From Patescibacteria group bacterium (GTDB taxonomy: Bacteria > Patescibacteriota > Patescibacteriia > Patescibacteriales > UBA12465): 64,000 nt of DNA. The DNA lies in assembly GCA_028687275.1 (NCBI GenBank), contig JAQUAK010000001.1, positions 100,213 through 164,212 on the forward strand, in the 5' to 3' direction. The position numbers and the translations under genes were made by a program. This document shows positions 29,123 to 45,200 of this stretch, one piece after another; positions within the stretch are counted from its first letter, which is position 1, and the number at the start of each line of letters is the position of its first letter. The notes below the pieces were generated by a model. The model saw nothing but the letters and a program-made list of their open reading frames with translations, ran no database searches and was not told where the DNA came from.

Positions 29123-29301
29123 ATTGCTGATAATTGATAAAATTTATCACTTTTAAGACTTTCCTTGATTTAAAAAAAATGATATAATTCTATTATAAAA
29201 TCAGATGTTTGAATTCAAGGATTTACCTTTTTTTCTTAATAAAAATTACAGTTAATTTTAACTGTAATTAGACATTGATTATAAGCATCTTGCTTGTGCA
29301 G

Positions 29302-32300: not shown

Positions 32301-35300
32301 AGGTGGAAGTTCGTTTTTTCTAAATACTCCTTCTGTTGCTTCTGCTGCTTCTGGTTTAGGATTAAAAGGGACATATGCCGCTGCTATCTCTACAATCAAT
32401 ATAAATGCATATGGTGTAAAGTATGCTGGATATGGTTCAAATTTGGCATTTTCTACTTCAAATGGTACCACTTTATCTGAGGCAATGAGAATAGATAAAA
32501 ACGGCAATGTCGGTATAGGCACCACCAACCCAACCACTAAATTATTTGTTAACGGTGGCACTGGTGATGCAGTTAATGTTGGAGGAGGAAGAATTCGTGG
32601 TTTAAATACTACTCCAGTTAATGCTGATGAAGCCGTACCTCTAACCTATCTACAAAGTAATTATGCTCCTATTGGTTCTGGAGCTGGATCTGCTTTTGTT
32701 CAAGGTGGTAATTCTTTTGGATCTATTGCTAATTTAGGCACCAACGACAATTATCCTTTAAATATTAAAACAAACAATGCTACTCAGATGACAGTTTTGG
32801 GTAATGGTAATGTTGGGATTGGAACGACTGCCCCAACAGCCGAATTACAAGTCAAGGGTACCGGGGGGACAATAAGTTTTGATGCAAGTTATAGTGCAAA
32901 TGGAGAAATTCCTGCAGGTTCCGCATTTTGGAATGTAGGTGGAAATTTTACAATGTTAGGAGACCCAACAGGAGTAGCTGGAAATAAATTAACTCTGGCT
33001 TATTATACAAATGGCAATGGCTGGAGATCGGCCTTGGATATTGCTAATACTGCAGAAGGAGCATATGGTAATTTATTATTAATGAAGTCTGGTGGTAATG
33101 TAGGGATTGGAACGACTAATCCAAGCGAAAAATTAACGGTAAGCAATGGAAATATAAAAATTGGGTCTCACGCAACAATAGGCAATGCTATTCTCGCTCC
33201 GTATCCATTAGGAGGATTAATAATAAAACCGGAATTTAATATTAATGATACAACTTCGGCTGTTTTGCAGATTCAAAAAAATGATAATAGTCCTTTGGTT
33301 ACATTCCAGGAAGATGGCAACGTCGGTATTGGCACAACGGCACCGGGAGCGAAGTTAGAATTAGCACAATCTGGTGACACGGAACAAAGCGGATTAAGAT
33401 TTACAAGAGTTGGGGCGACGAGAGCAAGTATCGCCTTAAGTGCAGCTTCTGGAAATTTGGAAATTGCAAGAGGAGGAACGTCAATAATATCAGTGGGCAC
33501 GAGTAACGTCGGCATCGGTACTACTAACCCAACTACTAAATTATATGTTAATGGTGGCACTGGTGATGCAGTTAATGTTGGAGGAGGAAGAATTCGTGGT
33601 TTAAATACTACTCCAGTTAATGCTGATGAAGCCGTACCTCTAACCTATCTACAAAGTAATTATGCTCCTATTGGTTCTGGAGCTGGATCTGCTTTTGTTC
33701 AAGGTGGTAATTCTTTTGGATCTATTGCTAATTTAGGCACCAACGACAATTATCCTTTAAATATTGAAACTAATAATGCCATTAGAATGACAGTATTGGG
33801 TAATGGTAATGTGGGGATTGGAACGACGAATCCAGAGGTAGATTTGGACATTCATAGAACTGGTCAGGGCTCAGCTTTTATTAGATTGTGGGACACAAGA
33901 AGCACCACTGGAGATACAGTGGGAATAAAAATGAGTACAGGCATTTCTACTCCAGATAAAACTGCTATTTTTCACAAAGAAACAGGCACTTATGGCGCTG
34001 GAGATATTGTTTTCGCTTTAAGTGGAAATACTGTTGACCCAGTTGATTTGATAAATGATGAAAAAATGAGGATTACAAAAGAGGGTAATCTTGGCATCGG
34101 CACTACCAACCCAACCACTAAATTATTTGTTAACGCTGGCACCGGTGATGCAGTTAATGTTGGTGGTGGTAGAATTCGTGGTTTAAATACTACTCCAGTT
34201 AATGCTGATGAAGCCGTACCTCTAACTTATCTACAAAGTAATTACGGTACAAGTGCGAGTGAATTATGGAAAGGAACTATTAATGGAAATATCTGGAATG
34301 GTGACAGCGGTGCGGGAAATGTTGGTATTGGGACGACGAATCCAGGGGATAAGTTGGAAGTTAATGGAGACGTCGGAATCATGAATGCAAGTAAATTAAA
34401 TTTTGGCTCGCAGTTACAAAATCCTCCCTATATTAAGGCTATCTGGAATGACAATAATAATACTGGCTTAGAGTTCCATACTTTTGCTGGCGCTGTTGAT
34501 ATCACTGCTTTAACATTAAGCAAAACAAGTGGTGCAATTACTGCCGCCGCAGAACTAAGGGTAAATGGAACAGGTAACTCTTCAATAGCAGGCAACGTCG
34601 GTATTGGCACTACCAATCCAGGCACCTATAGATTAAATGTGAATGGTAATACTAACATTAGTGGTGATTTAAACGTGACTGGGACAACAACTTCTTCAAG
34701 TTTTGTTGGTCCAATTGTGGGTACGATTTCGGCTGAGAATGTGTCCTCGGGTGACTTTGGGGCTGAGACTATGGGCGGTGATTATAGTTTTCCAGGGAAG
34801 CTGGGCATTGGGACCACTAACCCAAATGAAAATTTACAAATACATTCAAATTCTGGCTCAAAATCTCTAATTAGACTCACAAATGATTCTGAGTTAACTG
34901 GATTTGTGGCCGGCATTGATAATAGCGAAAGCGGATATTTTGGAACAGAGGGCCCGAGACAATTAAAAATAATAGCAAATAACGCAGAGGTTATTAGAGT
35001 TTCAACTTCAGGTAGCGTTGGGATTGGGACGATTAATCCTTTAGAAAAATTGGATTTAAGGGACGGTAATTTATATATCTCCGATTCAGATTTAGCAACT
35101 AATGGCGCCGGTGGATCCATAAAATTTGGTAGGCCGGAAGGCTATGCTTCCAATTGGCTGGCATCAATAGGTTCCTACGCTACTACAGGTTATGATCGTT
35201 TAGGTTTAACTTTTAATACTTCTTATGGAGTTACTCAAGAGAGAATGCGGATTACGCCAGAGGGCAATGTCGGCATCGGCACCACCAACCCAGGATCATA

Positions 35301-35745
35301 TCGCTTAAAGGTAGCTGGCGATGTGGCTATTACTGGAACCCTACAAACTCAAACTGGTTCTGACTTTGCTGAAGAATTTAGTGTTTCTGAAGATATATTA
35401 CCTGGCACGGTTGTAGTTATGTCAAATAAAGGGTATAAATCTGTACAGGCATCTAGTCGAGCCTATGATCAGACTGTGGTGGGTATTGTTTCTGATAATC
35501 CTTCAATTATTGCTGGTCGTGTTGATAGTGCTAAGAAAGTTGTGGTTGCTATGGTTGGAGTTGTGTCTGTTAATGTTAATAATAGTAATGGTAGTATTAA
35601 GCGGGGTGATCTTTTAACTACTTCTGCTGATTTAGGCATAGCCATGAAGTCAAAGGAATTTAAACCAGGTACAGTTATTGGTAAGGCGCTAGAAGATTTA
35701 AGGGGCAAATCTGGTCAAATTAAAGTACTGGTTAATTTGCAATAA
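29302..35745 (+). CDS. giant secreted repeat protein 1 (tail-fibre/adhesin-like, ~2147 aa)
   Basis: Uninterrupted ORF with signal peptide MKLKATKKSILKLPLELLFFVILFAFIFIAYTPAQA. It has dozens of GN[VI]GIGTTxPxxKL modules, five copies of the 162-bp cassette and a distinct C-terminal domain (GSDFAEEF..GDLLTTS..GKALEDL). Confidence 0.9.
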   Translation: MKLKATKKSILKLPLELLFFVILFAFIFIAYTPAQAIINDYNKITGSRLEAGEWNMLIQDFVTKNNGGDVMIGNYGINTATSSAFALDINGSLRASNITGAYTGTISADNVSAGDFGSETMGGDYTFSGKVGIGTTAPSTKLHITGDTNTIGQIETTVNGGTAVLRLDANPNYWDIKNYGASASLGFIRGTTEHMTILSSGNVGIGTTNPGQKLDVNGQSIFRGQMRIGDSSDGMAYSYSTGKATIVGIDNGLSGYNDLDIRSQGATQLYLSTNGNVGIGTTNPSEKLSVIGNIDFPKATSGSKISFEGSYNQQMYLDYDYNNVSGFDVFAIRSNGGTNRLHISNNGTTSLVPSGGNVGIGTTTPASTLDVNGLIKMRSATITQGEDVINKDYLDASLASTTAGIIYEMATSSIWQGSLTGNVYNANTGNVGIGTTNPQQTLHISGSASGSYIAGRIENTAASGAADFDFKNGAQMWKMGVNTLNQFRVRDDTNAANVMLIESGAGANAFFIKSGGNIGIGTTNPSAKLDIQGTTGGTAAWFRGGNSAFNIQTKDNLIELVSFNGSTYSPINIRAAGSGLTIDTSGNIGIGTTNPTTKLFVNGGTGDAVNVGGGRIRGLNTTPVNADEAVPLTYLQSNYAPIGSGAGSAFVQGGNSFGSIANLGTNDNYPLNIETNNAIRMTVLGNGNVGIGTTNIYTNVVGLQVNGVKSNQNKGIIGVMDSTSFATGVGGRIIFGGKYNASGAEIVFGGIEGSKENATDGNYAGALVLSTVPNSGNVTERMRITSTGNVGIGTTNPTTKLYVNGGTGDAVNVGGGRIRGLNTTPVNADEAVPLTYLQSNYAPIGSGAGSAFVQGGNSFGSIANLGTNDNYPLNIKTNNATQMTVLGNGNVGIGTTGPTAKLHLGSVSQDSYVLRADSSQGLSLFSIYQSGSTGRAVFNLANAGTTTIKLDTNGDSYFNSGNVGIGTTAPVSALNIVGTTDISWIDGTSYGLVTVGSRGVGGSSFFLNTPSVASAASGLGLKGTYAAAISTININAYGVKYAGYGSNLAFSTSNGTTLSEAMRIDKNGNVGIGTTNPTTKLFVNGGTGDAVNVGGGRIRGLNTTPVNADEAVPLTYLQSNYAPIGSGAGSAFVQGGNSFGSIANLGTNDNYPLNIKTNNATQMTVLGNGNVGIGTTAPTAELQVKGTGGTISFDASYSANGEIPAGSAFWNVGGNFTMLGDPTGVAGNKLTLAYYTNGNGWRSALDIANTAEGAYGNLLLMKSGGNVGIGTTNPSEKLTVSNGNIKIGSHATIGNAILAPYPLGGLIIKPEFNINDTTSAVLQIQKNDNSPLVTFQEDGNVGIGTTAPGAKLELAQSGDTEQSGLRFTRVGATRASIALSAASGNLEIARGGTSIISVGTSNVGIGTTNPTTKLYVNGGTGDAVNVGGGRIRGLNTTPVNADEAVPLTYLQSNYAPIGSGAGSAFVQGGNSFGSIANLGTNDNYPLNIETNNAIRMTVLGNGNVGIGTTNPEVDLDIHRTGQGSAFIRLWDTRSTTGDTVGIKMSTGISTPDKTAIFHKETGTYGAGDIVFALSGNTVDPVDLINDEKMRITKEGNLGIGTTNPTTKLFVNAGTGDAVNVGGGRIRGLNTTPVNADEAVPLTYLQSNYGTSASELWKGTINGNIWNGDSGAGNVGIGTTNPGDKLEVNGDVGIMNASKLNFGSQLQNPPYIKAIWNDNNNTGLEFHTFAGAVDITALTLSKTSGAITAAAELRVNGTGNSSIAGNVGIGTTNPGTYRLNVNGNTNISGDLNVTGTTTSSSFVGPIVGTISAENVSSGDFGAETMGGDYSFPGKLGIGTTNPNENLQIHSNSGSKSLIRLTNDSELTGFVAGIDNSESGYFGTEGPRQLKIIANNAEVIRVSTSGSVGIGTINPLEKLDLRDGNLYISDSDLATNGAGGSIKFGRPEGYASNWLASIGSYATTGYDRLGLTFNTSYGVTQERMRITPEGNVGIGTTNPGSYRLKVAGDVAITGTLQTQTGSDFAEEFSVSEDILPGTVVVMSNKGYKSVQASSRAYDQTVVGIVSDNPSIIAGRVDSAKKVVVAMVGVVSVNVNNSNGSIKRGDLLTTSADLGIAMKSKEFKPGTVIGKALEDLRGKSGQIKVLVNLQ
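31057..31218 (+). repeat. 162-bp cassette copy 1 (FVNGG variant)
   Basis: Encodes GNIGIGTTNPTTKLFVNGGTGDAVNVGGGRIRGLNTTPVNADEAVPLTYLQSNY. Followed by extension A, NIETNNAIR subtype. Confidence 0.95.
31663..31824 (+). repeat. 162-bp cassette copy 2 (YVNGG)
   Basis: In-frame near-identical copy. Followed by extension A, NIKTNNATQ subtype. Confidence 0.95.
32503..32664 (+). repeat. 162-bp cassette copy 3 (FVNGG)
   Basis: In-frame near-identical copy. Followed by extension A, NIKTNNATQ subtype. Confidence 0.95.
33502..33663 (+). repeat. 162-bp cassette copy 4 (YVNGG)
   Basis: In-frame near-identical copy. Followed by extension A, NIETNNAIR subtype. Confidence 0.95.
34084..34245 (+). repeat. 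162-bp cassette copy 5 (FVNAG)
   Basis: In-frame copy. Followed by extension B (YGTSASELWKGTINGNIWNGDSGAGNVGIG). Confidence 0.95.
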
Positions 35746-35757
35746 TTAATGTTATTT

Positions 35758-36036
35758 ACAATAAATATTTAAAGTATCATCCTCAAAACTCGCAAGAGGT
35801 ATTAACAGCCAGCGGGTTCTCATTATTTTAAACCGCTAATACCGGTTATGAGCAAATGAGCTGGTTATATTAGTCAGACGGGCGCTAAACCACTTTCGCA
35901 GTCGCGTTGACCACTGTTTATCACATTGCTGTGAACTAAAAGTCAAACACCATCACATGAAGACTCATTGTCAATAAAATTGTCTTTGGTTATATAATAC
36001 AAAGATCTTGAGGGTGATACTTTAAATATTTATTGT
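35758..36036 (+). ncRNA. candidate RT-associated structured ncRNA closed by a 29-bp stem
   Basis: Left arm 35758-35786 (acaataaatatttaaagtatcatcctcaa) is complementary to right arm 36008-36036, with 28 Watson-Crick pairs and one U-G pair. Internal hairpins lie at 35798-35843 and 35983-36005. No ORF is present. The unit starts 12 nt after the giant gene 1 stop and ends 14 nt before the RT ATG. Confidence 0.55.
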
Positions 36037-36050
36037 GTGCTTAAGAGCGG

Positions 36051-37286
36051 ATGACGCTCTTTTATATGTTCAAAAAGATTATTTCCAAAAAGAATTTAGA
36101 GGCGGCCTATTTAAAAATAGCGCAAGATATGGAACTCGATGGACGTTCCTATCGTTATCGTGGTTGGGATAATTGGAAATTGTCAGATTTAGAATTAAGG
36201 TCATCTGAAGTATTAGCAGAAATTCAACTTGAATTAAAAGAGTTTAAAGCCTTGGTGCCAGCTATATTGTTAAAGATTCCCAAGAAGAGTAATCCGCAGA
36301 AAGTTAGAGAAATTTACATTTATAACCTAAGAGAAAGAATTAAGGCGCAAGCAATATATCAAATCATTGAACCGATATTCGATCAATATTTTTCACCTTA
36401 CTTGTACTCATATCGTTCTTCTCATGCCAGCTATTTTGCCGCACGTAGCGTGGCACGTCATTACAAGAAATATCATCAACGTGATTATGTTTTAATTGGC
36501 GATTTATCTGATTACTCTAATTATATTGAGCATGAAAAGTTAAGAGAGAAAATTAGAATTTTAAATTTAGATAAAGAGGTAGAGAAATTATTATTCTTAT
36601 TTATAGGCAACGAAGTTGTACGCGATGGTGCTATTACTAAGCCAAAAGTGGGTTTAGTGCAGGGAGTCCCCTTAATTGCCTTGTTTAATAATTTGTATTT
36701 AGATGACTTTGATAAGTATGTTGGTCCGAAAACTGATTTCTATCGTCGTGTTGGTGATGATTTAATTATGTTTGCTTCTGACAAGGAACGCTTACTACCC
36801 TTACAACAGCATCTAATCGAAGAAGCTGATAATCTGGGCTTAAAAATTAATCAAGAAAAAAGCGCTTTACATCAACCAGATGAGGCTTTTGATTTTCTGG
36901 GCTACCATTTTTTTAAGGGTTTAATCTCTTTGCCGGATAATTATCAAAAAGCCTTAAAACTGAAATGGCGACAACAATTTTCATATTATTATAGACGTCA
37001 TGAAGATAGCAAAAAAAAGTATTTACAAAGAGTTATTCATCGTGATCGTCAGAACCTCAGAGAACAATTTGATCAATTGGCAGAACAAAAGAAGTTTGTT
37101 AATGATGAGAAGCAATTAAGGGATTTATCGGAAAGTTTTTTTCGTATTCTAACACGCTATTTTTTTAAAGATTATACGCCTAGAAATAGGCGTTTATTAC
37201 CAGCTAAGTTAAGGAAGATGGGGCTTACTTCTGTTTACAAACATTTTGTGAATACTCGTTATGACGCTTTCAAAGGAAAAAATTAA
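36051..37286 (+). CDS. reverse transcriptase (orphan; group-II-intron-like motifs; VGDD catalytic box)
   Basis: RT motifs 1-7 are present: IPKKSNPQKVREIYIYNLRERIKAQAIY, YSYRSSHASYFAA, VLIGDLSDYSNYIEH, GLVQGVPLIALFNNLYLDDFD, YRRVGDDLIMFA, GLKINQEKS and FDFLGYHF. A helical thumb-like C-terminus follows. There is no endonuclease domain. Confidence 0.9.
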   Translation: MTLFYMFKKIISKKNLEAAYLKIAQDMELDGRSYRYRGWDNWKLSDLELRSSEVLAEIQLELKEFKALVPAILLKIPKKSNPQKVREIYIYNLRERIKAQAIYQIIEPIFDQYFSPYLYSYRSSHASYFAARSVARHYKKYHQRDYVLIGDLSDYSNYIEHEKLREKIRILNLDKEVEKLLFLFIGNEVVRDGAITKPKVGLVQGVPLIALFNNLYLDDFDKYVGPKTDFYRRVGDDLIMFASDKERLLPLQQHLIEEADNLGLKINQEKSALHQPDEAFDFLGYHFFKGLISLPDNYQKALKLKWRQQFSYYYRRHEDSKKKYLQRVIHRDRQNLREQFDQLAEQKKFVNDEKQLRDLSESFFRILTRYFFKDYTPRNRRLLPAKLRKMGLTSVYKHFVNTRYDAFKGKN

Positions 37287-38964
37287 ATTAATGCAAAAGA
37301 GGCGACAGACGCGTTTAGACGATCGTCCTTTGTGGCCCTCAAAAGAGAATTTAAATTATCTACGTAATTTTTTTATCAAGGAAAAACGTCTACTTATTTT
37401 TAGTTTACTAGCCTTATTTGCACAAGGACTGCTGGAAGTGGCTTTAATTTTAATTAGTCATCGCTATTTAAAAACTAGTTCAGCTTTAGGGGCGATGACC
37501 AGCCAGGGCGGTCTTCTGGTTTTACTATTAATTTTTTCTCTACTCTATTTATTATCAGCTTATCGGGCTATTAAGGGTGAGCGTACTTTAATTGTTCGTT
37601 TGATTAATGATTTGCGTGAACGTTGGTTTCGCTTATTTGTGAATAAGCGCCCAGAAGAACATAATCTAGAGGGGAAGAGCATGGTGTTATCAAAAATTGC
37701 TTATCATTTACCTTTGTTAAGTACGGGCTTAAGCGCTTCTTTAGCTGGCCTAGTGCGTTGGTTGTTGTTGGTAGCAATTTTATTATTTTTATCTTTTACT
37801 TTTGGTTATCAATTATTATTATTTACTTTAGGGGCCGTTATTGTTGGTATTTTAATAGCCATAGGGGCGGGGCTAGTTTCCTATCGTTATGTGAGTAAGG
37901 AAACTACTTTCTATTCCCAGATTCTACGTTTCATTGATTTAAATTTATCTGATTGGCGTTTTGTGAAGTCATTTAGACGAGAGCGACCAGTGGTGGATGA
38001 ATTTAGAAAACTGGTTGATCTTGATTCTTTTTTTCGGGTACGTCGAGATTTATGGCTACGCTTTAGTGTGAGTTTAGTTTTTATTTTATTAATTTTTATT
38101 AGCTTTGGGGCAGGGGCAATGGGCACACAATTAGAATATTATTTTGGTACGGCTAGTAATGACGCCCGTTTTATTTTTATTATCGCACTGGTGTATTTTT
38201 CTCGTCTTTTATATGAAAGCTTACGTATTGGTTTATACTCAGTTCCTTTTGCTCTCGGTTTAAAGTTATCAGTACCAGAATTTATAGCTAGAAGATTGGG
38301 GAGAAGACAATTATTTAAAGCAGATAAATTAATTTTTAGTAGTAGTAAATCAAAGTTATTTAAACAGGCTAAAAGTTATCGCGCCTTTAGGTTTGAATTT
38401 GATAAAGGTGGTCGTTATCTATGTAGCGGTGTCGTTCGTTCAGGTAGAAGTTTATTGGCAAAATTGTTATGTGGGGAAGGGGTTTATGGTCGTCGAGCCT
38501 GGCTGTTAAAGGCGGGTGATAAGAAATATTTTTATAATGAATTCTTTGAGAAGTATGCTGGTTTTTATTATCTAGACCCTAATTTTACCAGCAGTCGTTC
38601 ATTACTAGAGACAGTTGTGGGCAAGGAAAAAACCGCTATTAATGAATTAGAATTTGCTCGTGCTTCAGGGCTTATAAATGAGCATAAACTTTTGCGAGAT
38701 ATATTTTCAGTTAAAGAAGATTGGCGTTTACGCGCTGATAAGTTTTTGGTAAATAGCAAGAACATCTTATTAATCCAGATCGTCTACTGTCTATTAAATA
38801 AGCCTTATTTAATTGCCCTAGATAATGCTTGGACTGATCGTCGGGATAAAGAAGTTGAAGACTTGTTATTATTGCTAGAAAAATTATTACCCGATACAAT
38901 TATCGTTGTGATGGCTGATAGGGAAAATAAATTATTTAATTACCGGGAGCACTATGAGATATAA
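37261..38964 (+). CDS. ABC-exporter-like membrane protein with degenerate nucleotide-binding domain
   Basis: An N-terminal ~6-TM region is followed by a C-terminal NBD-like region. In the NBD, Walker A reads GVVRSGRS (K to R), the signature position reads LVNSKN, Walker B reads LIALDN (E to N) and the H-loop position reads MADRE. An alternative ATG lies at 37291. Confidence 0.7.
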   Translation: MTLSKEKIKLMQKRRQTRLDDRPLWPSKENLNYLRNFFIKEKRLLIFSLLALFAQGLLEVALILISHRYLKTSSALGAMTSQGGLLVLLLIFSLLYLLSAYRAIKGERTLIVRLINDLRERWFRLFVNKRPEEHNLEGKSMVLSKIAYHLPLLSTGLSASLAGLVRWLLLVAILLFLSFTFGYQLLLFTLGAVIVGILIAIGAGLVSYRYVSKETTFYSQILRFIDLNLSDWRFVKSFRRERPVVDEFRKLVDLDSFFRVRRDLWLRFSVSLVFILLIFISFGAGAMGTQLEYYFGTASNDARFIFIIALVYFSRLLYESLRIGLYSVPFALGLKLSVPEFIARRLGRRQLFKADKLIFSSSKSKLFKQAKSYRAFRFEFDKGGRYLCSGVVRSGRSLLAKLLCGEGVYGRRAWLLKAGDKKYFYNEFFEKYAGFYYLDPNFTSSRSLLETVVGKEKTAINELEFARASGLINEHKLLRDIFSVKEDWRLRADKFLVNSKNILLIQIVYCLLNKPYLIALDNAWTDRRDKEVEDLLLLLEKLLPDTIIVVMADRENKLFNYREHYEI

Positions 38965-40168
38965 GTTTAAAAAATGGCGCCTATTAGTTGGGGTAGTGCT
39001 TTTTATACTTGCTCTTTTTATATTATCTCTATTATCACGTTGGGGTGCTCGTCTAATCGGTGATTGGTTGACTATAAAAAGCAAGCCGGCCTATTCAGTT
39101 GTTTCACCTACACCTCTAGAGGCAGATATTCTATTTAATGATGAGCCTGGGACAGAGATATTTTCTGAGCGCATAATTAAAGAGCTTAATTCTGCTAAAA
39201 AAAGTGTGGAAGTTGCCATGTATACCTTTAGTTCAGAAAAACTCAAGCAAGCTCTCTATCAGGCAAGTGACAGGGGACTTAAGGTAACTATTATCAGTGA
39301 TGTTAGTAACCATAATAGTAGTAGCTTATTCTTTGCTGAAGCTCCGGCTGATTTAATCTGGTTGGAAGCTGGTTCAAATAATGGTGGCAGAACTACTTTT
39401 ATGCATCATAAGTTTGCTATTATTGATCGCGGTGAAAGTGAACAAAAATTAATCTTCGGTTCTTATAATTGGACTGATTTACAGGAAAAGTATGACCCCA
39501 GTTTTCTAATGTTTAGTGCTAATGGGGATTTAATTAATAGTTTTGGTCGTGAGTTTGAGCGTCTAGTTAATGGTGATATGGGAATAAAGAAGCTAAATAG
39601 CCCAAATTATCATCCCTGGGATTTATCTTTACAAATAGAAGAAAATAATTATGAAGTTTGGTTTAGCCCTGGTCGTTTAGGTGATAGTGTGACTGCTCGT
39701 CTTGATTCTTTGATAAATAGTGCGACTAGCACGATTGATATTATGATTTGGGACTTTACCGATAAAGACTTAGCCCTAGATATTGTGCGACAAGCTCGAG
39801 CGGGCATTAAAGTGCGTTTGATTACTGATACTTGGAATTTTAACAATCAAAACTCAGTCTTTCGTTATCTATTAAGTGCTAAAGAGCGCTATAGTTTAGA
39901 TAACTTTGAGCTGATTTTAGATAAAGGTAATGGACTAGCTGTTAGCCAGATAAAGACGGACGCAGATTTAGAAGCTGATTTTGATCCCTTTCTGCATTAC
40001 CATGTTTTAATTGTTGATGATGCTCAAGTCTTGTTTGGTACTAATAATTGGAGCCGATCCGGTGCTTATTATAACGATGAATCAATTATAGTAACTAATG
40101 ATCAAGTTATTATCTCTAATTTTAAAGAGGCTTTTGCTAAGCAGTATAGGAATAATAAGCTTCAATAA
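38954..40168 (+). CDS. membrane-anchored phospholipase D-superfamily protein (two HKD-type lobes)
   Basis: N-terminal TM anchor. The first lobe is canonical (HHKFAIID..GSYNWTD). The second lobe is degenerate (HYHVLIVDD..GTNNWSRSG, K to H). Confidence 0.8.
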   Translation: MRYKFKKWRLLVGVVLFILALFILSLLSRWGARLIGDWLTIKSKPAYSVVSPTPLEADILFNDEPGTEIFSERIIKELNSAKKSVEVAMYTFSSEKLKQALYQASDRGLKVTIISDVSNHNSSSLFFAEAPADLIWLEAGSNNGGRTTFMHHKFAIIDRGESEQKLIFGSYNWTDLQEKYDPSFLMFSANGDLINSFGREFERLVNGDMGIKKLNSPNYHPWDLSLQIEENNYEVWFSPGRLGDSVTARLDSLINSATSTIDIMIWDFTDKDLALDIVRQARAGIKVRLITDTWNFNNQNSVFRYLLSAKERYSLDNFELILDKGNGLAVSQIKTDADLEADFDPFLHYHVLIVDDAQVLFGTNNWSRSGAYYNDESIIVTNDQVIISNFKEAFAKQYRNNKLQ

Positions 40169-40237
40169 TTATTGTTTTTTTAGAGAGGCAATGCTATAAT
40201 ATTATTAATTATTAAATAAACAACTAATTTAAAATCT

Positions 40238-40828
40238 ATGAACAGGGGGTTTAAGCAATACGTATCTAGTCATGGGCGCACTCTTCTAATGTCGGCTTTA
40301 ATTTTTCTATTGTTAGCAGTAGTGGCCGTCGGACCTTTGGTCTATAAAGTAATGGCTGATTTAAGTTCGGCTGAAGCCGAAGCGGTGCAGGCAAAGAATG
40401 CCGCTATTAGCCAAGCTATTATCAACGGAGATTACAACACTTGGAGCTCATTGGTTGATGATGATAAATTAAAAGCAGAGATTACCGCTGAAAATTTTGG
40501 CGCCTTTGCTCAAGCCTACGCTCTTTTAGAAAAAGGAGAAGTAGAGGTAGCTAATATTTTCAAGCAGCAGTTAAATTTGAAGCGTACTTATGATATTTCT
40601 ATGATGAAATCAGCTATTATTAGCTCTGCTATTGCCGAAGGTAATTATGATAAGTGGCGTAACGCTGTTGGCCAAGATTATGCTCCTGAAGTTACAAGTG
40701 GTAATTTTAAAGGCTATGCCGATATTTTACAAAAGATAAATAGAGGTCTTTTAAATAGATCTTCTAAAATACAGATAAATATGGGGCTTAAACAAAATTT
40801 AAATAGCTATTATAGCTCCAGTCATTAA
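40238..40828 (+). CDS. membrane-anchored helical protein with internal duplication
   Basis: It contains two related ~60-aa units, AISQAIINGDYNTWSSLV..ENFGAFAQAY and AIISSAIAEGNYDKWRNAV..GNFKGYADIL. Confidence 0.6.
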   Translation: MNRGFKQYVSSHGRTLLMSALIFLLLAVVAVGPLVYKVMADLSSAEAEAVQAKNAAISQAIINGDYNTWSSLVDDDKLKAEITAENFGAFAQAYALLEKGEVEVANIFKQQLNLKRTYDISMMKSAIISSAIAEGNYDKWRNAVGQDYAPEVTSGNFKGYADILQKINRGLLNRSSKIQINMGLKQNLNSYYSSSH

Positions 40829-40853
40829 TTTTTTAATTATACTTAAAGCCTTT

Positions 40854-41450
40854 ATGTCTAGGAAAAAAATTATAATTTTATTTATTTTGGCTATTTTTGT
40901 GGCCATCATATCTTTGTTCGCCTATTCCTTTTGGTTGGCACCGGAAACAGCTCTAGAAACAGATAAAGTTAATACACCGGTTAGTCAAAATAAGAACATG
41001 CAAGAAGCCGCCGCTATCGCAGTATCGGAGGCTACAGTTGTTATTCCGGGAGCTGATTTGATTAATAAGGAGCAACAAGTTATTTCTGATTTAGGCGTAC
41101 CAGTGCAGAGCTCGGTTATGCCTAATGCTCCGGACGCTCCTAAGGCGGTGGTGGTAAATAAGGGTAAGATGCCGGAGCAGGTAATTAACATTACTGTAGC
41201 TAATAACGAATTCACCCCTAAAAACTTCACCGTTACCGCTGGAGCTCCAGTTTCATTAGCCTTTAGTTCTGGTGATAACAAGACGCATATTATTTCTTTT
41301 CGTGAGGCCAGTATGGCAGCGGTAGCTTTTGGTATTTCCCCTAATCAAACTAAGGCTATGACTTTTAATGCTCCTTCTGAGCCGGGTGAATATGAGTTTT
41401 TTTGCGGCGTGCCTGGTCATGAAGAGACGGGCATAATGAACGTATATTGA
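40854..41450 (+). CDS. membrane-anchored cupredoxin-like protein (paralog 1; H-C-H-M ligand set present)
   Basis: The C-terminal domain reads ITVANNEFTPKNFTVTAGAPVSLAF..KTHIISF..YEFFCGVPGHEETGIMNVY. Confidence 0.75.
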   Translation: MSRKKIIILFILAIFVAIISLFAYSFWLAPETALETDKVNTPVSQNKNMQEAAAIAVSEATVVIPGADLINKEQQVISDLGVPVQSSVMPNAPDAPKAVVVNKGKMPEQVINITVANNEFTPKNFTVTAGAPVSLAFSSGDNKTHIISFREASMAAVAFGISPNQTKAMTFNAPSEPGEYEFFCGVPGHEETGIMNVY

Positions 41451-41464
41451 ATAAATATAAAATT

Positions 41465-42094
41465 ATGAATAAATTTTTTCTTAAAAACACTAAAGGCAGT
41501 CAAAAGACAATTATGATTGCCCTACTCGCTGTCGCTATTATTCTCGTTGTTTTAGTTGCCATTAGCTTATTTAAAAAACCGGTGGTTGATAAGCCGATTA
41601 CAAACCTTAATAATGGAGCTCCAGCGGAAGTTGTAGATAATATGGTAGGGGACTTGGAGCCTAATACTCCAGTAGCCGACCCAGTAGATGCATTTAGAGC
41701 CGAAGTTCCGGTCAACACTGTTGTGCCCGGTGTTGATACTCAGTTATCGGAGGAAGAAAAGAAAGAGATTGCTTTGCCGGGCATAGTCGTGCCTGCCGCT
41801 CCCGGATCAAATAATAGTTTTAGGAATTTCAAGATTAGTATTGAAAATGATGTTTTTAGTCCTAGCAAGGCCATTGTTAATGTCGGTGATACCGTTCATA
41901 TTGATTTTACCGCTGTTGATAAAGCCTATGACCTCTCTTTTCCTAGCTATAATATGAAGTCGACATTTGTTCAAGGTCAAACTAGAATCATGGAATTTAA
42001 AGCTAAAAAAGAGGGTAGTTTCACCTTCTATTGCCCTAGTTGTGGTGGTCCTGAAGCTGGTCCAGTTGGTAATATCATAATTGTGGCCAAGTAA
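41465..42094 (+). CDS. membrane-anchored cupredoxin-like protein (paralog 2; ligands lost, CPSC motif)
   Basis: Same domain layout (FKISIENDVFSPSKAIVNVGDTVHIDF..FTFYCPSCGGPEAGPVGNIIIV). I chose the ATG at 41465. Confidence 0.65.
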   Translation: MNKFFLKNTKGSQKTIMIALLAVAIILVVLVAISLFKKPVVDKPITNLNNGAPAEVVDNMVGDLEPNTPVADPVDAFRAEVPVNTVVPGVDTQLSEEEKKEIALPGIVVPAAPGSNNSFRNFKISIENDVFSPSKAIVNVGDTVHIDFTAVDKAYDLSFPSYNMKSTFVQGQTRIMEFKAKKEGSFTFYCPSCGGPEAGPVGNIIIVAK

Positions 42095-42293: not shown

Positions 42294-45200
42294 ATGCTTA
42301 AAATAACTCTCAGAACGACCATAAAAATGTTGGGATTATTATTTATTCCAATAGTTTTTTGTTTTCTTTTTGTACCACAAACATTGGCTGCGGTTGGTTT
42401 AAGTGTGGGTAGCGGCACTCTAAACTTAGGCTCAGCCGAAAATCTTTTCTATGGCAATATTGGTAGCGCTAGTCATGCCTCTAGTAGTTTTTTATTATTA
42501 CAAAAAAATAGTGCTAATATTTTTAAAATTGATAACTTTGGAAATGTAAGTACACCGGGTGTAATTACCGCTACTGGTGGCTTTGTCGGTTCAATTACTG
42601 GCGGCGTTGTTAATGCCGAAAATGTTTCAGCCGGTGACTTTGGTGCGGAGACTATGGGTGGTGATTATAGTTTTCCTGGGAAGGTAGGGATTGGGACGAC
42701 TGATCCAGAATATAAGTTAACTATTAGGAGTGATAATTTAGGAATATCTTCAACGCCAGTAATGAGTTTAAGAAACTCTGCTGCTGCCACCTTATCCCTA
42801 CAACAGAGGTCACCAGCGATTATTTTAGAGGGGCAAGGTTGGAATTATTTGTCACAAACATCAGCGCCTATAAAAGCTTTGATAGATATTTTACCTTTGA
42901 AAAAAAATACTAAACAAGATGTGACAAATTTTACCGAGTCAACTCCATTATTTGTATTTAAGTCTTTGACTGGAGAGGCTGGAGAGGTTACAAACCTAAC
43001 TATTGGAACTGATCCAAGATGGGATAGGTATACTAATTTTTGGGCTGGCGAAGTAGTTCCTAATGAAAATAATTTTTCTTGGCAATTAAAAAACAGCGGA
43101 GCAGAACAATGGTTTAATAGTACTGGGGTAACTTTGTTTACTATTAACAATGTCCCTAAATTAAATGTTAAGACACAGGGGATATTAATTGGATCATTTT
43201 CTTGGAACGCTACCGCTTCTCAGGCTTTACACGTGATCGGTAATGCTAGGGTCACGGGAGCTTATTACGATAGCTCTAATAGCGCAGGTTCTAGTGGCGC
43301 AGTGCTAACTTCTACAGGAACAGGCACAAGTTGGTCTGATATTGATATGACAGATAAGTGGACAAAAGGCGGTGATACTTTAGGAGAAAAGGACACTCTT
43401 GGTTCTATTGATTTAAGGGATATAGGATTTAAAACTAATAATCAAGAGAGACTAACAATATTAAGTGATGGCAACGTCGGCATTGGCACTACCAACCCAA
43501 CTACTAAATTATATGTTAATGGTGGCACTGGTGATGCAGTTAATGTTGGCGGAGGTAGAATTCGTGGTTTAAATACTACTCCAGTTAATGCTGATGAAGC
43601 CGTACCTCTAACTTATCTACAAAGTAATTACGGTACAAGTGCGAATGAATTATGGAAAGGAACTATTAATGGAAACATTTGGAATGGTGATAGTGGTGCG
43701 GGAAATGTGGGGATTGGGACGACTGAGCCTTCAACTAAATTAGATATTCAATCAGTTAAAGCGGCAGTTAGAATTAAGTCTACAACTGGAACAAATTATT
43801 CAACTTTTTATTTGAATAATGCTGGTGGAGATTTTTATGTTGGTAGGAATAATAGTGTTGGTACTGGTTTGGTTACCACTGGCGGGTTACCTTATGCAGG
43901 TACATTAAACGCACAAGGTGTATATCCGTTACAATTCGCCACAAATAATTCAGTTGCAATGACGATAATAAATGGCGGCAACGTCGGGGTGGGGACAGCT
44001 ACTCCTGGAGTAAAATTAGACGTTGCTGATGGTTTAATCCGACAATCTGGATTTTTAGTTTCTGATGCAATCAGCGATAATATGCTTGTGAATGGTGATT
44101 TTGAAATGAATAGCACATTGGGTTGGTCTGGTTTAACTGGGATTGCAACAGAAGGTGTGTCGGGTAAATATGCCGCCGAAATTGTTGGATATCGATCAAT
44201 TTCTAGTTATGATTATATTCCGGTTAACCCCACTGAGGATATCTTTCAACTGGAGGCCTGGGTAAAAAAATCGTATACAGGAACTAATCCGGGATTAATT
44301 TATTTTGGCTATTATGCTTATGACGGTGATAAAAATTTAATAACATCAGCTCCGTGTGGAACCTATTGTTATTTTGCCGCCTCAGGTTATACTATTCCCG
44401 ATAATGGAGCTTGGCATAAATTATCCTCTGTTACTACAGGTGAGGGAACATCGTATCCTAATTTTCCAGTTGGAACCAGGTATGTTAAAATTATGGGCTT
44501 AATTAACTATAATTCTACTGGTAATTCTATTACTCTTTTAGACCATGTTACCTTAAAAAGAATTTATAAAGGACCGTTAATTGCGGGTAATAATTTTTCT
44601 TCTTCAAATAGGGTCGACAATTATCAATATTCTACTTTATACACCACGGCTAATAATCTTATTATTGATACAGTCGGCAACGTCGGTATCGGCACCACCA
44701 ACCCAACTACTAAATTATATGTTAACGCTGGTACTGGTGATGTAGTCAATGTTGGAGGAGGTAGAATTCGTGGTTTAAATACTACTCCAGTCAATGCTGA
44801 TGAAGCCGTACCTCTAACCTATCTACAAAGTAATTATGCTCCTATTGGTTCTGGAGCTGGTTCTGCCTTTGTTCAAGGTGGTAATTCTTTTGGCTCTATT
44901 GCTAACTTAGGTACTAATGACAATTATCCTTTAAATATTGAAACTAATAATGCCATTAGAATGACAGTATTGGGTAATGGGAATGTGGGGATTGGGACGA
45001 CAGCGCCTAATAATTTATTACAAGTTGCTGGATTAATTAATTTTAATGATACAGATTTTAATACATTTATAGGAAGAAATGCTGGTTTAAATGTAGTAGC
45101 TGGTGCGCAATATAATACATTCTTAGGTTATGAGGCTGGAAGATCGGCAGGAGGAACAGGCGCGGCTGATTTCAATGTAGCCGTAGGAAGAAGAGCTTTA

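Follow-up and report, generated by a model that had tools for sequence, protein, structure and literature searches.

We are highly confident that the reverse transcriptase (RT) encoded at positions 36066 to 37286 of the analysed DNA (the window, 64,000 nucleotides of a Patescibacteria contig) belongs to a genuine four-part RT-RNA system, in which it is accompanied by a structured non-coding RNA (ncRNA), an ABC-exporter-like membrane protein and a PLD-superfamily protein. This module is known from about 80 loci, for the most part in Patescibacteria, and its four parts are co-inherited and occur only together. The observation made in the window thus holds well beyond it. The features of the window copy, with the evidence for each in brackets, are the following:

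35757..36037, + strand: structured ncRNA unit, 281 nt, closed by stem P1 (fold, covariance model R1, covariation)
35757..35786, + strand: P1 5' arm (complementarity, arm covariation across loci)
35789..35798, + strand: P2 hairpin, CUC-GCAA-GAG (helix 1, 92% paired)
35799..35804, + strand: pseudoknot 5' strand, GUAUUA, pairing with 35837-35842 (covariation)
35807..35866, + strand: P3, 35807-13 with 35860-66, enclosing P4 and P5 (91% paired)
35819-23 / 35848-52, + strand: P4 (74% paired)
35832-35 / 35843-46, + strand: P5 (79% paired)
35867..35961, + strand: variable central region (alignment A5)
35962..35975, + strand: conserved single-stranded motif GACUCAUUGUCAAU (alignment of 3' domains)
35982..36006, + strand: P6 hairpin, directly before the P1 3' arm (fold, 3'-domain alignment)
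36008..36037, + strand: P1 3' arm (complementarity, arm covariation across loci)
36043..36070, + strand: terminator-like hairpin and T-tract between ncRNA and RT start (ATG 36051 in its loop)
36066..37286, + strand: RT, 406 aa, alternative upstream ATG 36051 (profiles, homologues, NCBI record, predicted fold)
37261..38964, + strand: ABC exporter-fold half-transporter, 567 aa (Pfam, motif inspection, homologues, predicted fold)
38954..40168, + strand: predicted tandem two-lobe PLD-superfamily nuclease, Nuc/NucT/Zucchini type, 404 aa (profiles, motifs)

Co-inheritance and distribution of the module

Using tblastn on 76 genome loci with RT identities from 69% to 30%, the ABC-like gene was found beside the RT in 74 of the 74 loci with room for it and the PLD gene in 71 of 71. 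Clustering of 813 flanking ORFs from 77 loci (the 76 homologous loci and the window) identified only the RT, ABC-like and PLD families as universal (77, 73 and 69 of 77 loci, respectively), the next commonest family being present in 17. The same triad was recovered when the search began from the ABC-like protein or from the PLD, in the latter case even for an outlier of 28% identity (P0288). In L069, L072 and L076 the ABC/PLD pair is divergently oriented yet still linked, and the ncRNA keeps company with the RT where the operon is rearranged. In the window the reading frames couple by overlap, exactly as first described: the overlap is 26 nt between ATG 37261 and the RT stop, and 11 nt between the PLD ATG 38954 and the stop of the ABC-like gene. 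The first-pass annotation had proposed a four-part system outside the described families, and this proposal is supported by the conservation of RNA and neighbours, homologous RTs as little as about 30% identical still having the ncRNA upstream and the ABC-like and PLD genes as neighbours. Its description of the RT as an orphan has to be abandoned, since the RT belongs to a family of hundreds. We found no published description of the four-part module and no described RT system matching it.

The distribution of the module is patchy and its genomic contexts are varied. Several genomes contain two to three divergent paralogues, the phage collections are essentially devoid of it, and one copy lies on a 2.96 Mb Longimicrobiales contig of 62% GC (L063). 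The module is flanked by housekeeping genes and by genes for type IV pilins and giant surface proteins; close relatives share these neighbours, a sign of vertical inheritance. No known defence genes were found among the neighbours, nor does the module lie in defence islands.

The structured RNA upstream of the RT

Structural selection acts strongly on the ncRNA, and it does so on the RT strand. A long closing stem encloses five internal helices and a pseudoknot that covaries, in the 5' to 3' order P1, P2, pseudoknot with P3, P4 and P5, variable centre, conserved single-stranded motif, P6 and P1. The 301-nt ncRNA region folds at −86.4 kcal/mol, with z = −5.3 versus shuffles. The 29-bp stem noted initially was recovered, with arms at 35758-35786 and 36008-36036 (29 nt, 97% complementary, one U.G pair), and a terminal U.G (35757/36037) lengthens it to 30 bp. 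The arm sequence has no other occurrence in the window, 0 chance matches being expected, and the G.U wobbles of the 3' arm work only in the + strand RNA. Across loci the arms covary, with 59 distinct 16-nt arm sequences, 57% of them with at least 15 of 16 complementary positions downstream versus 0 of 1400 shuffles.

Among the internal helices, compensatory changes were observed at two of the three P2 pairs and in each of P3, P4 and P5, for which slid controls were 33-44% paired at most. The pseudoknot helix, whose 3' strand is the P5 loop (35837-35842), was left outside the covariance model; across 69 distinct sequences its pairing reaches 99.0%, and all six of its pairs covary. Over the ncRNA alignment 87.7% of cells are paired and the covariation score is 0.69, whereas shuffled controls give 0.29 and slid ones no more than 0.16. 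The covariance-model check suggested in the first-pass annotation thus yielded strong covariation, including that of the pseudoknot. The model itself (R1), built on the 5' half of the ncRNA, scores 81.1 bits at 35777-35867, its sole match in the window. It matches upstream of the RT and on the RT strand in 65 of the 76 homologous loci, as well as in 11 of 11 further loci; the 70 matches in 1.01 Mb without exception precede the RT on the + strand.

Units measure about 180-330 nt across loci and occur in one to three tandem copies per locus (three in L078, two in L083). Their variable central region (23-122 nt) shows no relationship from one tandem unit or locus to another and matches orthologous units only. 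In the shortest units this cassette is nearly absent, so a retron-like payload hairpin is no general feature. The conserved single-stranded motif reads CCUCRUUGGAUUUAAU in other subgroups, and the P6 stem varies in sequence between loci with its complementarity kept. The concatenated unit contains no stop-free frame, and a DRT2-type gene-synthesis mechanism is therefore unsupported for the whole unit.

The unit had been placed 14 nt before the ATG of a 411-aa RT. That ORF (36051-37286; RVT_1 match 2.4e-18) is present and the distance is correct for ATG 36051, a codon that falls in the loop of the terminator-like hairpin at 36043-36061. RT homologues and the NCBI record, however, have 406 aa and begin with MFKKI. 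We therefore consider ATG 36066 the most likely start, which puts 29 nt, not 14, between stem end and start codon.

The RT and its partner proteins

In an alignment of 30 homologues the catalytic box RVGDD is invariant, as are D146, G230, D231, D232, K265, L278, G279 and Y280; the VGDD and FLGY motifs first reported are thus as claimed, and judged by these residues the RT appears catalytically intact. Its predicted fold superimposes on the full-length group II intron RT GsI-IIC with a TM score of 0.81, and its closest PDB matches are group II intron RTs, with G2L4 among the structural matches. TIGR04416 gave 1.5e-35; its 123 bits fall short of the curated cut-off, which is 300. In agreement with the first-pass annotation, the RT has no endonuclease domain, group II intron RNA families were not detected at E up to 10, and Cas1 was not found. 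A DGR-type repeat was not found either. None of the retron, UG/DRT and CRISPR-RT profiles fits any of the 30 family members. We would describe the RT as free-standing and group-II-intron-like, probably of a new kind.

With retrons the module shares an ncRNA that directly precedes the RT on the RT strand, with a conserved 5' part, a variable centre and a long inverted-repeat stem formed, as by a1/a2, from its two ends; it also shares the co-inheritance of one or two effector genes. It differs in an RT outside the retron clade (profiles about 1e-7 at best; Ec86 44th by fold), in a near-invariant A after the 5' arm instead of the conserved branching G, in the pseudoknot and in the tandem arrays. 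To our knowledge, none of the 13 described retron effector types consists of an ABC-exporter-like protein with an outward PLD. The intron-type fold with N-terminal extension, thumb and C-terminal domain is common to G2L4/G2L5, related clades and CRISPR-associated RTs, and the absence of intron RNA and endonuclease is common to the free-standing group-II-intron-like RTs, a lineage of domesticated intron RTs gaining new partners (PMC8632793). Unlike these, the module RT has RVGDD and not YADD or YIDD, a dedicated structured ncRNA and obligatory ABC-like and PLD partners. Described G2L associations are with queuosine-cluster genes, DNA repair and Cas1 (PMC8632793 among the sources).

In DRT2 and DRT9 (UG2, UG28), too, a structured ncRNA adjoins the RT on its upstream side; it acts there as template or scaffold, a role that we infer to be probable for the module ncRNA as well. 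DRT9 is the best non-intron structural match. Their profile scores are nevertheless weak (Drt9 5e-18, Drt2 about 1e-9), concatenation of the module unit yields no never-ending ORF, and DRT2 and DRT9 need, as far as we know, no separate effector proteins. UG26 and UG17/DRT10 (class 2 UG/Abi RTs) have a similar RT size of about 400 aa. UG26 is the top named PADLOC profile (126 bits; best E-value across the 30 family members 8e-38), but it aligns over only part of its length (positions 56-314 of 398), and a generic RT profile does at least as well. PMC9226505 couples UG17 with a membrane (SLATT) effector and reports a Vsr-like endonuclease in 9 of 35 UG26 members; its main text makes no mention of ABC or PLD.

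The second protein is ABC-exporter-like, as proposed. The exporter membrane domain is recognized in Pfam (1e-9), the whole protein models as a half-transporter of MsbA/BmrCD/TAP type with MsbA and PglK as top fold matches, and M1 (ATG 37261) is retained in at least 90% of homologues. That every ATPase motif is substituted applies to the window copy, in which Walker A reads G390-x4-G-R396-S (R396 replacing K), D521-N522 replaces Asp-Glu and the H-loop His is absent, but not to the family, most members of which keep GxxxxGK[ST]. Walker-B Glu, H-loop His and LSGGQ are lost in almost all of 23 representative members inspected, one of which keeps Asp-Glu. Thus, in spite of the full-length exporter fold shared with MsbA/TAP-type exporters, the ATPase site lacks the catalytic Glu, the His and the signature and is predicted to be catalytically dead; most members probably still bind nucleotide.

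The PLD consists of two PLDc_2 lobes (5e-38) behind a single N-terminal signal-anchor membrane helix, which bears out its initial description. Lobe 1 contains H151-x-K153-x4-D158 and lobe 2 H348-x-H350-x4-D355, the Lys-to-His change being conserved across the family. As in the dimers of Nuc, NucT and Zucchini, two lobes build an HKD-type active site; here, however, a single chain, anchored in the membrane, contains both, and the second has HxH in place of HxK. Of the nuclease or phospholipase character suggested earlier, the profiles favour the former (1e-26 for nuclease models, 7e-4 for cardiolipin synthase), so that the PLD is classed by sequence as nuclease-type (NucT/Zucchini), not lipase-type. 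In 67 of 68 PLDs a strongly positive N-flank precedes the one membrane helix, which by the positive-inside rule places the nuclease domain outside; from charge bias alone, the catalytic domain is probably outward, or extracytoplasmic. The family boundary is sharp: scores drop from 212 bits to 134, still within a triad, and then to 64 bits for generic PLDs.

Possible roles

The most likely role, which we put forward tentatively and by analogy with characterised non-mobile bacterial RTs that come with an ncRNA and an effector, is a retron/DRT-like anti-phage defence with membrane effectors. The module RT would bind its ncRNA as dedicated partner, as group II intron RTs do with the intron, retron RTs with the msr-msd RNA and DRT2/DRT9 RTs with an ncRNA; it would copy part of this RNA into cDNA. 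The ribonucleoprotein or the cDNA would then control or feed the ABC-like/PLD pair at the membrane. Infection may alter cDNA synthesis, a signal that the degenerate nucleotide-binding domain would read to open or lock the exporter-like channel, resulting in membrane failure or in coupling to nuclease attack on DNA at the envelope. Patchiness, two to three divergent paralogues, varied contexts and near-absence from phage collections are defence-like traits. An outward nuclease would, however, be an odd abortive-infection effector, since host and phage DNA are inside the cell, and an exporter fold with an external phosphodiesterase would fit export plus processing more naturally.

Nucleic-acid export or a cell-surface function serving episymbiotic Patescibacteria is a serious competitor of defence, although we regard it as less likely. 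The RT-RNA particle would make DNA or RNA-DNA, to be moved by the ABC-like protein and trimmed or released by the PLD; in a variant, the pair would handle incoming nucleic acid that the RT then copies. Host interaction, extracellular DNA and nucleotide or DNA acquisition are conceivable uses. The MsbA/PglK/TAP-type fold over the full length, the predicted outside location of the nuclease and its NucT/Nuc type agree with export (NucT is linked to DNA uptake in Helicobacter), as do the absence from defence islands and the neighbours: type IV pilin-like genes in the flanks of 17 loci, often directly upstream, DprA and ComM adjacent to the module in L078, and giant surface proteins in the window, L078, L081 and L085. 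These genomes abound in pilins and giant surface proteins, though, whose adjacency may be due to chance. Moreover, the ATPase meant to power transport appears dead, we know of no precedent for the export of an RT product, patchiness and divergent paralogues per genome suit conflict systems better than a core lifestyle function, and the module also occurs in Longimicrobiales.

It is improbable that the ncRNA is merely a cis-acting leader, an RT-binding autoregulatory or riboswitch-like 5' UTR, of an RT with a cellular role such as DNA repair that has nothing to do with copying this ncRNA. Group II intron RTs do autoregulate via RNA binding at their own start site, the DNA-repair RT G2L4 is among the structural matches, and more than 20 loci have a P1 3' arm whose end lies 0-10 nt from the RT start codon and whose GGAG/GAGG-like sequence might serve as ribosome-binding site. 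Tandem arrays of two to three complete units argue against a leader, and so do the 29 nt and terminator-like hairpin before the start codon in the window and the arrangement in L024, where the ncRNA has a strong intrinsic terminator of its own in the same place and two genes, with pilin-like genes there, stand before the RT. Five helices and a pseudoknot far exceed what occlusion of a ribosome-binding site needs, and the obligatory ABC/PLD partners would be left unexplained. A group II intron that has decayed or been miniaturised, or some other mobile retroelement with cargo genes, would account for the closest RT relatives by sequence and fold; it is made very improbable by the lack of a detectable intron RNA and of an endonuclease, the sub-threshold TIGR04416 score, the replaced YADD tyrosine, an RT gene wholly outside the ncRNA, a single copy in the window, and conserved neighbours and vertical inheritance in close relatives. 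The least probable reading by a small further step, lipid remodelling or scavenging by unrelated ABC-like and PLD genes sharing a transcript with the RT, had been offered in the first-pass annotation and would be in keeping with the lipid-flipping MsbA and PglK and with the JGI annotation of the PLDs as cardiolipin-synthase-like. Mere co-transcription is largely refuted by the co-occurrence data: across about 80 loci, at identities as low as 28-30%, the genes are linked exclusively and reciprocally, and they remain linked in the three divergent loci, where the pair is inverted with respect to the RT. Both the sharp PLD family boundary and the preference of the PLD for nuclease over cardiolipin synthase models point the same way.

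The four parts of the module are inherited jointly

The three protein genes of the module follow one another on the forward strand of the window, downstream of a structured non-coding RNA (ncRNA; 35757-36037). The overlaps of 26 nt (RT/ABC-like) and 11 nt (ABC-like/PLD) described in the first-pass annotation are borne out by the ORF coordinates:

36051-37286, + strand, reverse transcriptase (RT) ORF
37261-38964, + strand, ABC-like ORF (exporter-fold protein)
38954-40168, + strand, PLD ORF (phospholipase D-superfamily nuclease)

At about 4.4 kb the module is compact, and it is self-contained. The source of the window is a Patescibacteria MAG, and the three proteins carry only generic names in NCBI (MDD2680589-91). 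The RT ORF as originally called stands, with a match to RVT_1 in Pfam, but its start codon most likely does not: in NCBI and in all homologues the protein begins at the second ATG, at 36066, giving 406 aa. Between the RNA and the RT start lies a terminator-like hairpin followed by a T-tract (36043-36061). The upstream ATG at 36051 falls inside its loop, which further supports 36066 as the start, and the hairpin itself suggests partial termination downstream of the RNA.

The RT had been called an orphan. This did not hold, as its homologues number in the hundreds, mostly of 400-425 aa, and the few with a source name are labelled Falkowbacteria, Magasanikbacteria or Patescibacteria. A scan of one genome per species yielded 76 homologous loci, in which RT identity ranged from 69% down to 30%. 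The proposed co-occurrence of the ABC-like and PLD genes with homologous RTs was found by tblastn in all loci with room for them, 74 of 74 and 71 of 71, respectively. In three of the loci (L069, L072 and L076) the ABC-PLD pair is divergent and upstream, yet still adjoins the RT. When the 813 flanking ORFs of 77 loci (the 76 and the window) were clustered, only three families proved universal, with 77, 73 and 69 of the 77 loci represented; the next commonest family, type IV pilin-like, was present at 17.

The linkage is reciprocal. The remotest ABC-like homologues, at 32% identity, are likewise encoded between an RT gene and a PLD gene. Scores within the PLD family drop from 212 bits to 134 bits and then to the 64 bits of generic PLDs, and the 134-bit outlier (28% identity) again lies in a triad of RT, membrane protein and PLD. 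In several genomes the module is present as two or three divergent copies. One complete module, with a GC-rich 27-bp closing stem and a match to the RNA model described below, was found outside Patescibacteria, on a 2.96 Mb contig of 62% GC from Longimicrobiales (L063, CBDFMQ010000002.1). The family is therefore not strictly limited to Patescibacteria, and this locus implies horizontal spread past that radiation. A phage-borne system was considered and rejected: a search of 2.9 million viral contigs gave 1 match, and no close relative turned up among GenBank phages, so that viral collections essentially lack the family. The four parts are thus inherited jointly and found only jointly.

Predicted properties of the three proteins

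Sequence comparison placed the RT closest to the RTs of group II introns (TIGR04416, 1.5e-35), and in the PDB it matched 5hhj, 6ar1 and 7uim with E-values of about 1e-17 to 1e-18. Its structural model (pLDDT 90) aligned to the full-length GsI-IIC RT with a TM-score of 0.81, followed by DRT9, G2L4, group IIC intron RTs and a DGR RT; retron Ec86 and DRT2 scored far lower. The unusual VGDD catalytic box was confirmed, the motif reading RVGDD instead of the usual R-Y-A-D-D. Residues D146, G230, D231, D232 and K265 are invariant in the RT alignment and the enzyme therefore looks active.

The PLD protein contains two PLDc_2 domains in Pfam. Profiles for NucT scored 1.3e-26, against only 7e-4 for cardiolipin synthase, and NucT, Zucchini/MitoPLD and Nuc were the matches in the PDB. 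The first lobe carries H151-x-K153-x4-D158 with GSxN and the second H348-x-H350-x4-D355 with GxNNW, in which His replaces the Lys; the motif residues of both lobes are at least 95% conserved across 68 sequences. The protein is accordingly predicted to be a Nuc/NucT-type nuclease whose two motifs form one active site. A single hydrophobic helix is present at the N terminus of 67 of the 68 PLDs, preceded in most by a strongly positive flank, and by the positive-inside rule the nuclease domain would lie outside the cytoplasm.

Pfam recognized only the ABC membrane domain in the ABC-like protein, and PF00005 was matched by distant members of the family. In Foldseek searches the AlphaFold model (pLDDT 82.8) aligned over about 570 columns to MsbA, BmrCD, PglK and TAP; the match to these and to TmrAB runs end to end. 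The predicted fold is that of a type IV exporter, with a six-helix membrane domain and a nucleotide-binding domain. The earlier statement that every ATPase motif is substituted applies to the window copy (GRS in Walker A, D-N in Walker B, a degenerate signature and Ser/Ala at the H-loop) but not to Walker A across the family: GxxxxGK[ST] is kept in most members, and Arg replaces Lys in the window copy and in its homologue at L001. Of 23 representative members, all but one have Asn or another non-acidic residue after the Walker-B Asp; Ser or Ala stands in place of the H-loop His, and LSGGQ is lost. We infer that the protein binds nucleotide without hydrolyzing it. At two loci (L087 and L088, 5324-7029) the gene calls divide the ABC-like gene into ORFs of 210 and 352 aa, either through a frameshift or as a natural division between the membrane and nucleotide-binding parts.

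The RNA is under structural selection and tied to the RT

The 29-nt inverted repeat reported upstream of the RT is present at 35758-35786 and 36008-36036, with 97% complementarity, and a terminal U.G pair lengthens the closing stem (P1) to 30 bp. Within the window the arm sequence is unique, the chance expectation being 0 matches, and the region folds with z = -5.3 relative to shuffled sequences. A stem search in each locus revealed uninterrupted stems of 12-33 bp upstream of the RTs, closing units of about 170-330 nt. The 3' ends of the units lie mostly 0-60 nt before the RT start, and the stem sequences are very unlike between loci. An alignment resolved a common layout of the 5' half: P1, a small hairpin (P2), a six-nt strand, and helices P3/P4 enclosing P5, the loop of which pairs with the six-nt strand to form a pseudoknot. 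In the 3' half lie three elements: a hairpin that varies, a single-stranded motif that is conserved (GACUCAUUGUCAAU in the window) and P6, a last hairpin that abuts the 3' arm of P1.

In a 36-sequence alignment, 85% of cells were paired and covariation reached 0.67, compared with 0.31 after shuffling and at most 0.19 in slid controls. A covariance model of 92 positions that left out the pseudoknot was then run against the window and the 76 loci, 1.01 Mb in total. It gave 70 matches, all on the + strand and all 5' of an RT; the single window match spans 35777-35867 (81 bits). The pseudoknot, although outside the model, was 99.0% paired in the resulting 70-sequence alignment, with compensatory changes in 6 of 6 pairs. 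For P1, arms were anchored on the model matches: among 59 distinct 16-nt arms, 57% had at least 15 of 16 complementary positions downstream, compared with 0 of 1400 shuffles. Many P1 pairs are G.U on the + strand, which indicates transcription in the direction of the RT. At 11 further loci, reached through the ABC-like or PLD protein, the model matched upstream of every RT. Strong structural selection thus acts on the RNA, which is tied to the RT.

Six loci contain tandem units, each unit being one P1-closed RNA, upstream of a single RT:

L004, 915-1520, two units
L064, 6385-7000, two units
L028, 6529-6927, two units
L035, 6630-6910, two units
L083, 4438-4715, two units
L078, 9148-9857, three units

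The 5' and 3' cores of tandem units are near-identical, their central regions are unrelated and their P1 arms differ compensatorily. In L004 and L064 the RNA had seemed circularly permuted, but this was an artefact of the stem finder, as both hold two complete tandem units. In L024 (3794-6992) a strong intrinsic terminator and two pilin genes separate a complete unit from the RT downstream, and in the loci with inverted ABC-PLD genes the stem-closed unit remains 5' of the RT on the RT strand. These arrangements argue against the RNA being a mere cis-acting leader of the RT mRNA. At the loci with a short P1 (L030, L040, L048, L070 and more than 20 others), the 3' arm ends 0-10 nt from the RT start codon and contains GGAG- or GGGG-like sequence, so that the stem may also mask the ribosome-binding site. 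The window is exempt, its stem ending 29 nt before the RT start. A promoter scan returned matches no commoner than chance.

The central region varies from 23 to 122 nt and is GC-richer than the core. It is nearly missing in the shortest units and is therefore an insertion-tolerant site and not a universal payload. When 28 of these central cassettes were compared by BLAST with all fetched loci as possible targets, they matched orthologous units only.

Relation to known RT systems and possible roles

The proposal that the RT lies outside the described classes was supported by PADLOC, in which no class fitted any of 30 members; their best scores were to a generic RT profile (6e-43) and, partially, to UG26 (8e-38). 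UG26, the best named class among the UG/Abi/DRT defence RTs, covered the protein only in part and at 126 bits did no better than the generic profile; the 2022 UG/Abi survey ties UG26 to a Vsr-like endonuclease only (PMC9226505). Synthesis of a gene from the whole unit in the manner of DRT2 is not supported: a stop-free frame was absent from 53 of 53 concatenated units, and unit lengths are not multiples of 3. The RT does not belong to the retron clade: retron profiles were weak on it (RT_III-A, 2.3e-8; retron_St85, 1.7e-6 and 27.5 bits against a cut-off of 235), group II profiles reach 1e-35, and motif 7 reads FLGY. The RNA has a conserved terminal stem and a structured fold, but differs from a retron msr-msd in its pseudoknot and in having no obligatory long template hairpin. 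Retrons prime their branched multicopy single-stranded DNA from the 2'-OH of a conserved G; no such G adjoins the stem here, where position 12 of the 5' domain is instead an almost invariant A.

The RT fold remains intron-RT-like, but the unit, at only 281 nt, is not a group II intron RNA. An Rfam scan of 34500-41000 with E up to 10 returned no intron family, only three chance snoRNA-like matches inside coding sequence. Nor does the protein qualify as an intron-encoded RT/maturase, since it lies wholly downstream of the RNA and scores 123 bits with TIGR04416 against a cut-off of 300. With the free-standing group-II-intron-like (G2L) RTs it shares a group II-type fold and sequence without intron RNA; G2L4 ranks behind GsI-IIC and DRT9 in structure and has YIDD where the module has RVGDD. 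ABC-like and PLD genes are not among the G2L associations listed in a 2021 review, which also puts the share of DGRs among the RTs of this radiation at about 80% (PMC8632793). For the module, a DGR was rejected: no 50-nt stretch of the unit recurs on either strand of the 64 kb window with at most 3 non-A mismatches, an Avd-like family is absent from the clustered flanks, and the DGR RT sequence match was only 1.2e-4. Among the recurrent neighbours in the clustered flanking ORFs, Cas1, Avd and known defence genes were not found. A miniature transposon with terminal inverted repeats is incompatible with the single occurrence of the arm in the window, the constant position of the unit 5' of the RT, and internal helices that covary with + strand-specific G.U pairs.

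Domesticated bacterial RTs produce retron DNA, carry out DRT2 gene synthesis or template-independent and homopolymer synthesis, and have yielded genome-editing tools. The module described here can be classed with combinations of a domesticated RT, a dedicated ncRNA and effectors; its RT lineage, RNA fold and putative effector pair are each new. It adds a group-II-intron-derived RT lineage with an unusual RVGDD active site and a new class of RNA with strong covariation and tandem arrays. We know of no other RT system whose partners are an ABC exporter with a dead ATPase and a nuclease predicted to face outward. In the literature searched, which covers few subscription journals, no account emerged that pairs an RT with ABC-like and PLD proteins or describes this RNA or a VGDD RT; such an absence is not proof.

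By analogy with group II intron RTs, retrons, DRT2 and DRT9, the RT would bind the module RNA and copy part of it. As to what such a product would serve, we tentatively place a retron- or DRT-like defence role first, because the architecture, patchy distribution, paralogy and mobility of the module fit it; no enrichment of defence genes was seen in the clustered flanks. Export of nucleic acid or a role at the cell surface ranks second and seems rather unlikely to us; in its favour are the exporter fold, the outward-facing nuclease and the repeated presence of pilins and surface proteins nearby. A further reading, which we consider improbable, is RT-driven secretion or surface display, in which a defined DNA or RNA-DNA product of the modular RNA array would cross a non-hydrolyzing ABC-exporter-like channel and be processed by the exofacial PLD nuclease. 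Were this the case, ultra-small episymbionts would act in this way on hosts, competitors or incoming phage at the surface; to our knowledge, the use of reverse transcription outside the cytoplasm is without precedent. The module occurs mostly in Patescibacteria, an understudied group whose defence and host-interaction biology is barely known, and it is testable, since the RNA structure, the active-site residues and the mutants of interest already follow from the comparisons made here.

The surroundings of the module show several recurrent features. Positions 40238-40828 of the window encode a 196-aa protein that has a membrane helix at its N terminus and is assigned to no family. It adjoins the module in 14 closely related loci, usually just 3' of the PLD gene and in L006 and L017 just upstream of the RNA, and may be a clade-specific fifth component. 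Further downstream (40854-42094), two adjoining cupredoxin-like proteins of 198 and 215 aa, membrane-bound or secreted, are conserved across about 10 loci related to the window. Type IV pilin-like genes with a prepilin N-terminal motif occur in the flanks of 17 loci, often directly 5' of the RNA. In the window the module is flanked by predicted giant surface proteins of 2156 and 1616 aa (29275-35745 and 42294-47144), whose genes share many near-identical internal repeats, GNVGIGTTNP...VNVGGGRIRGLNTTPVNADEAVPLTYLQSNY, within and between them. In L078, L081 and L085, too, the module has giant surface proteins beside it, which carry DUF2341/Laminin_G_3 or PKD domains, and in L078 DprA and ComM adjoin it as well.
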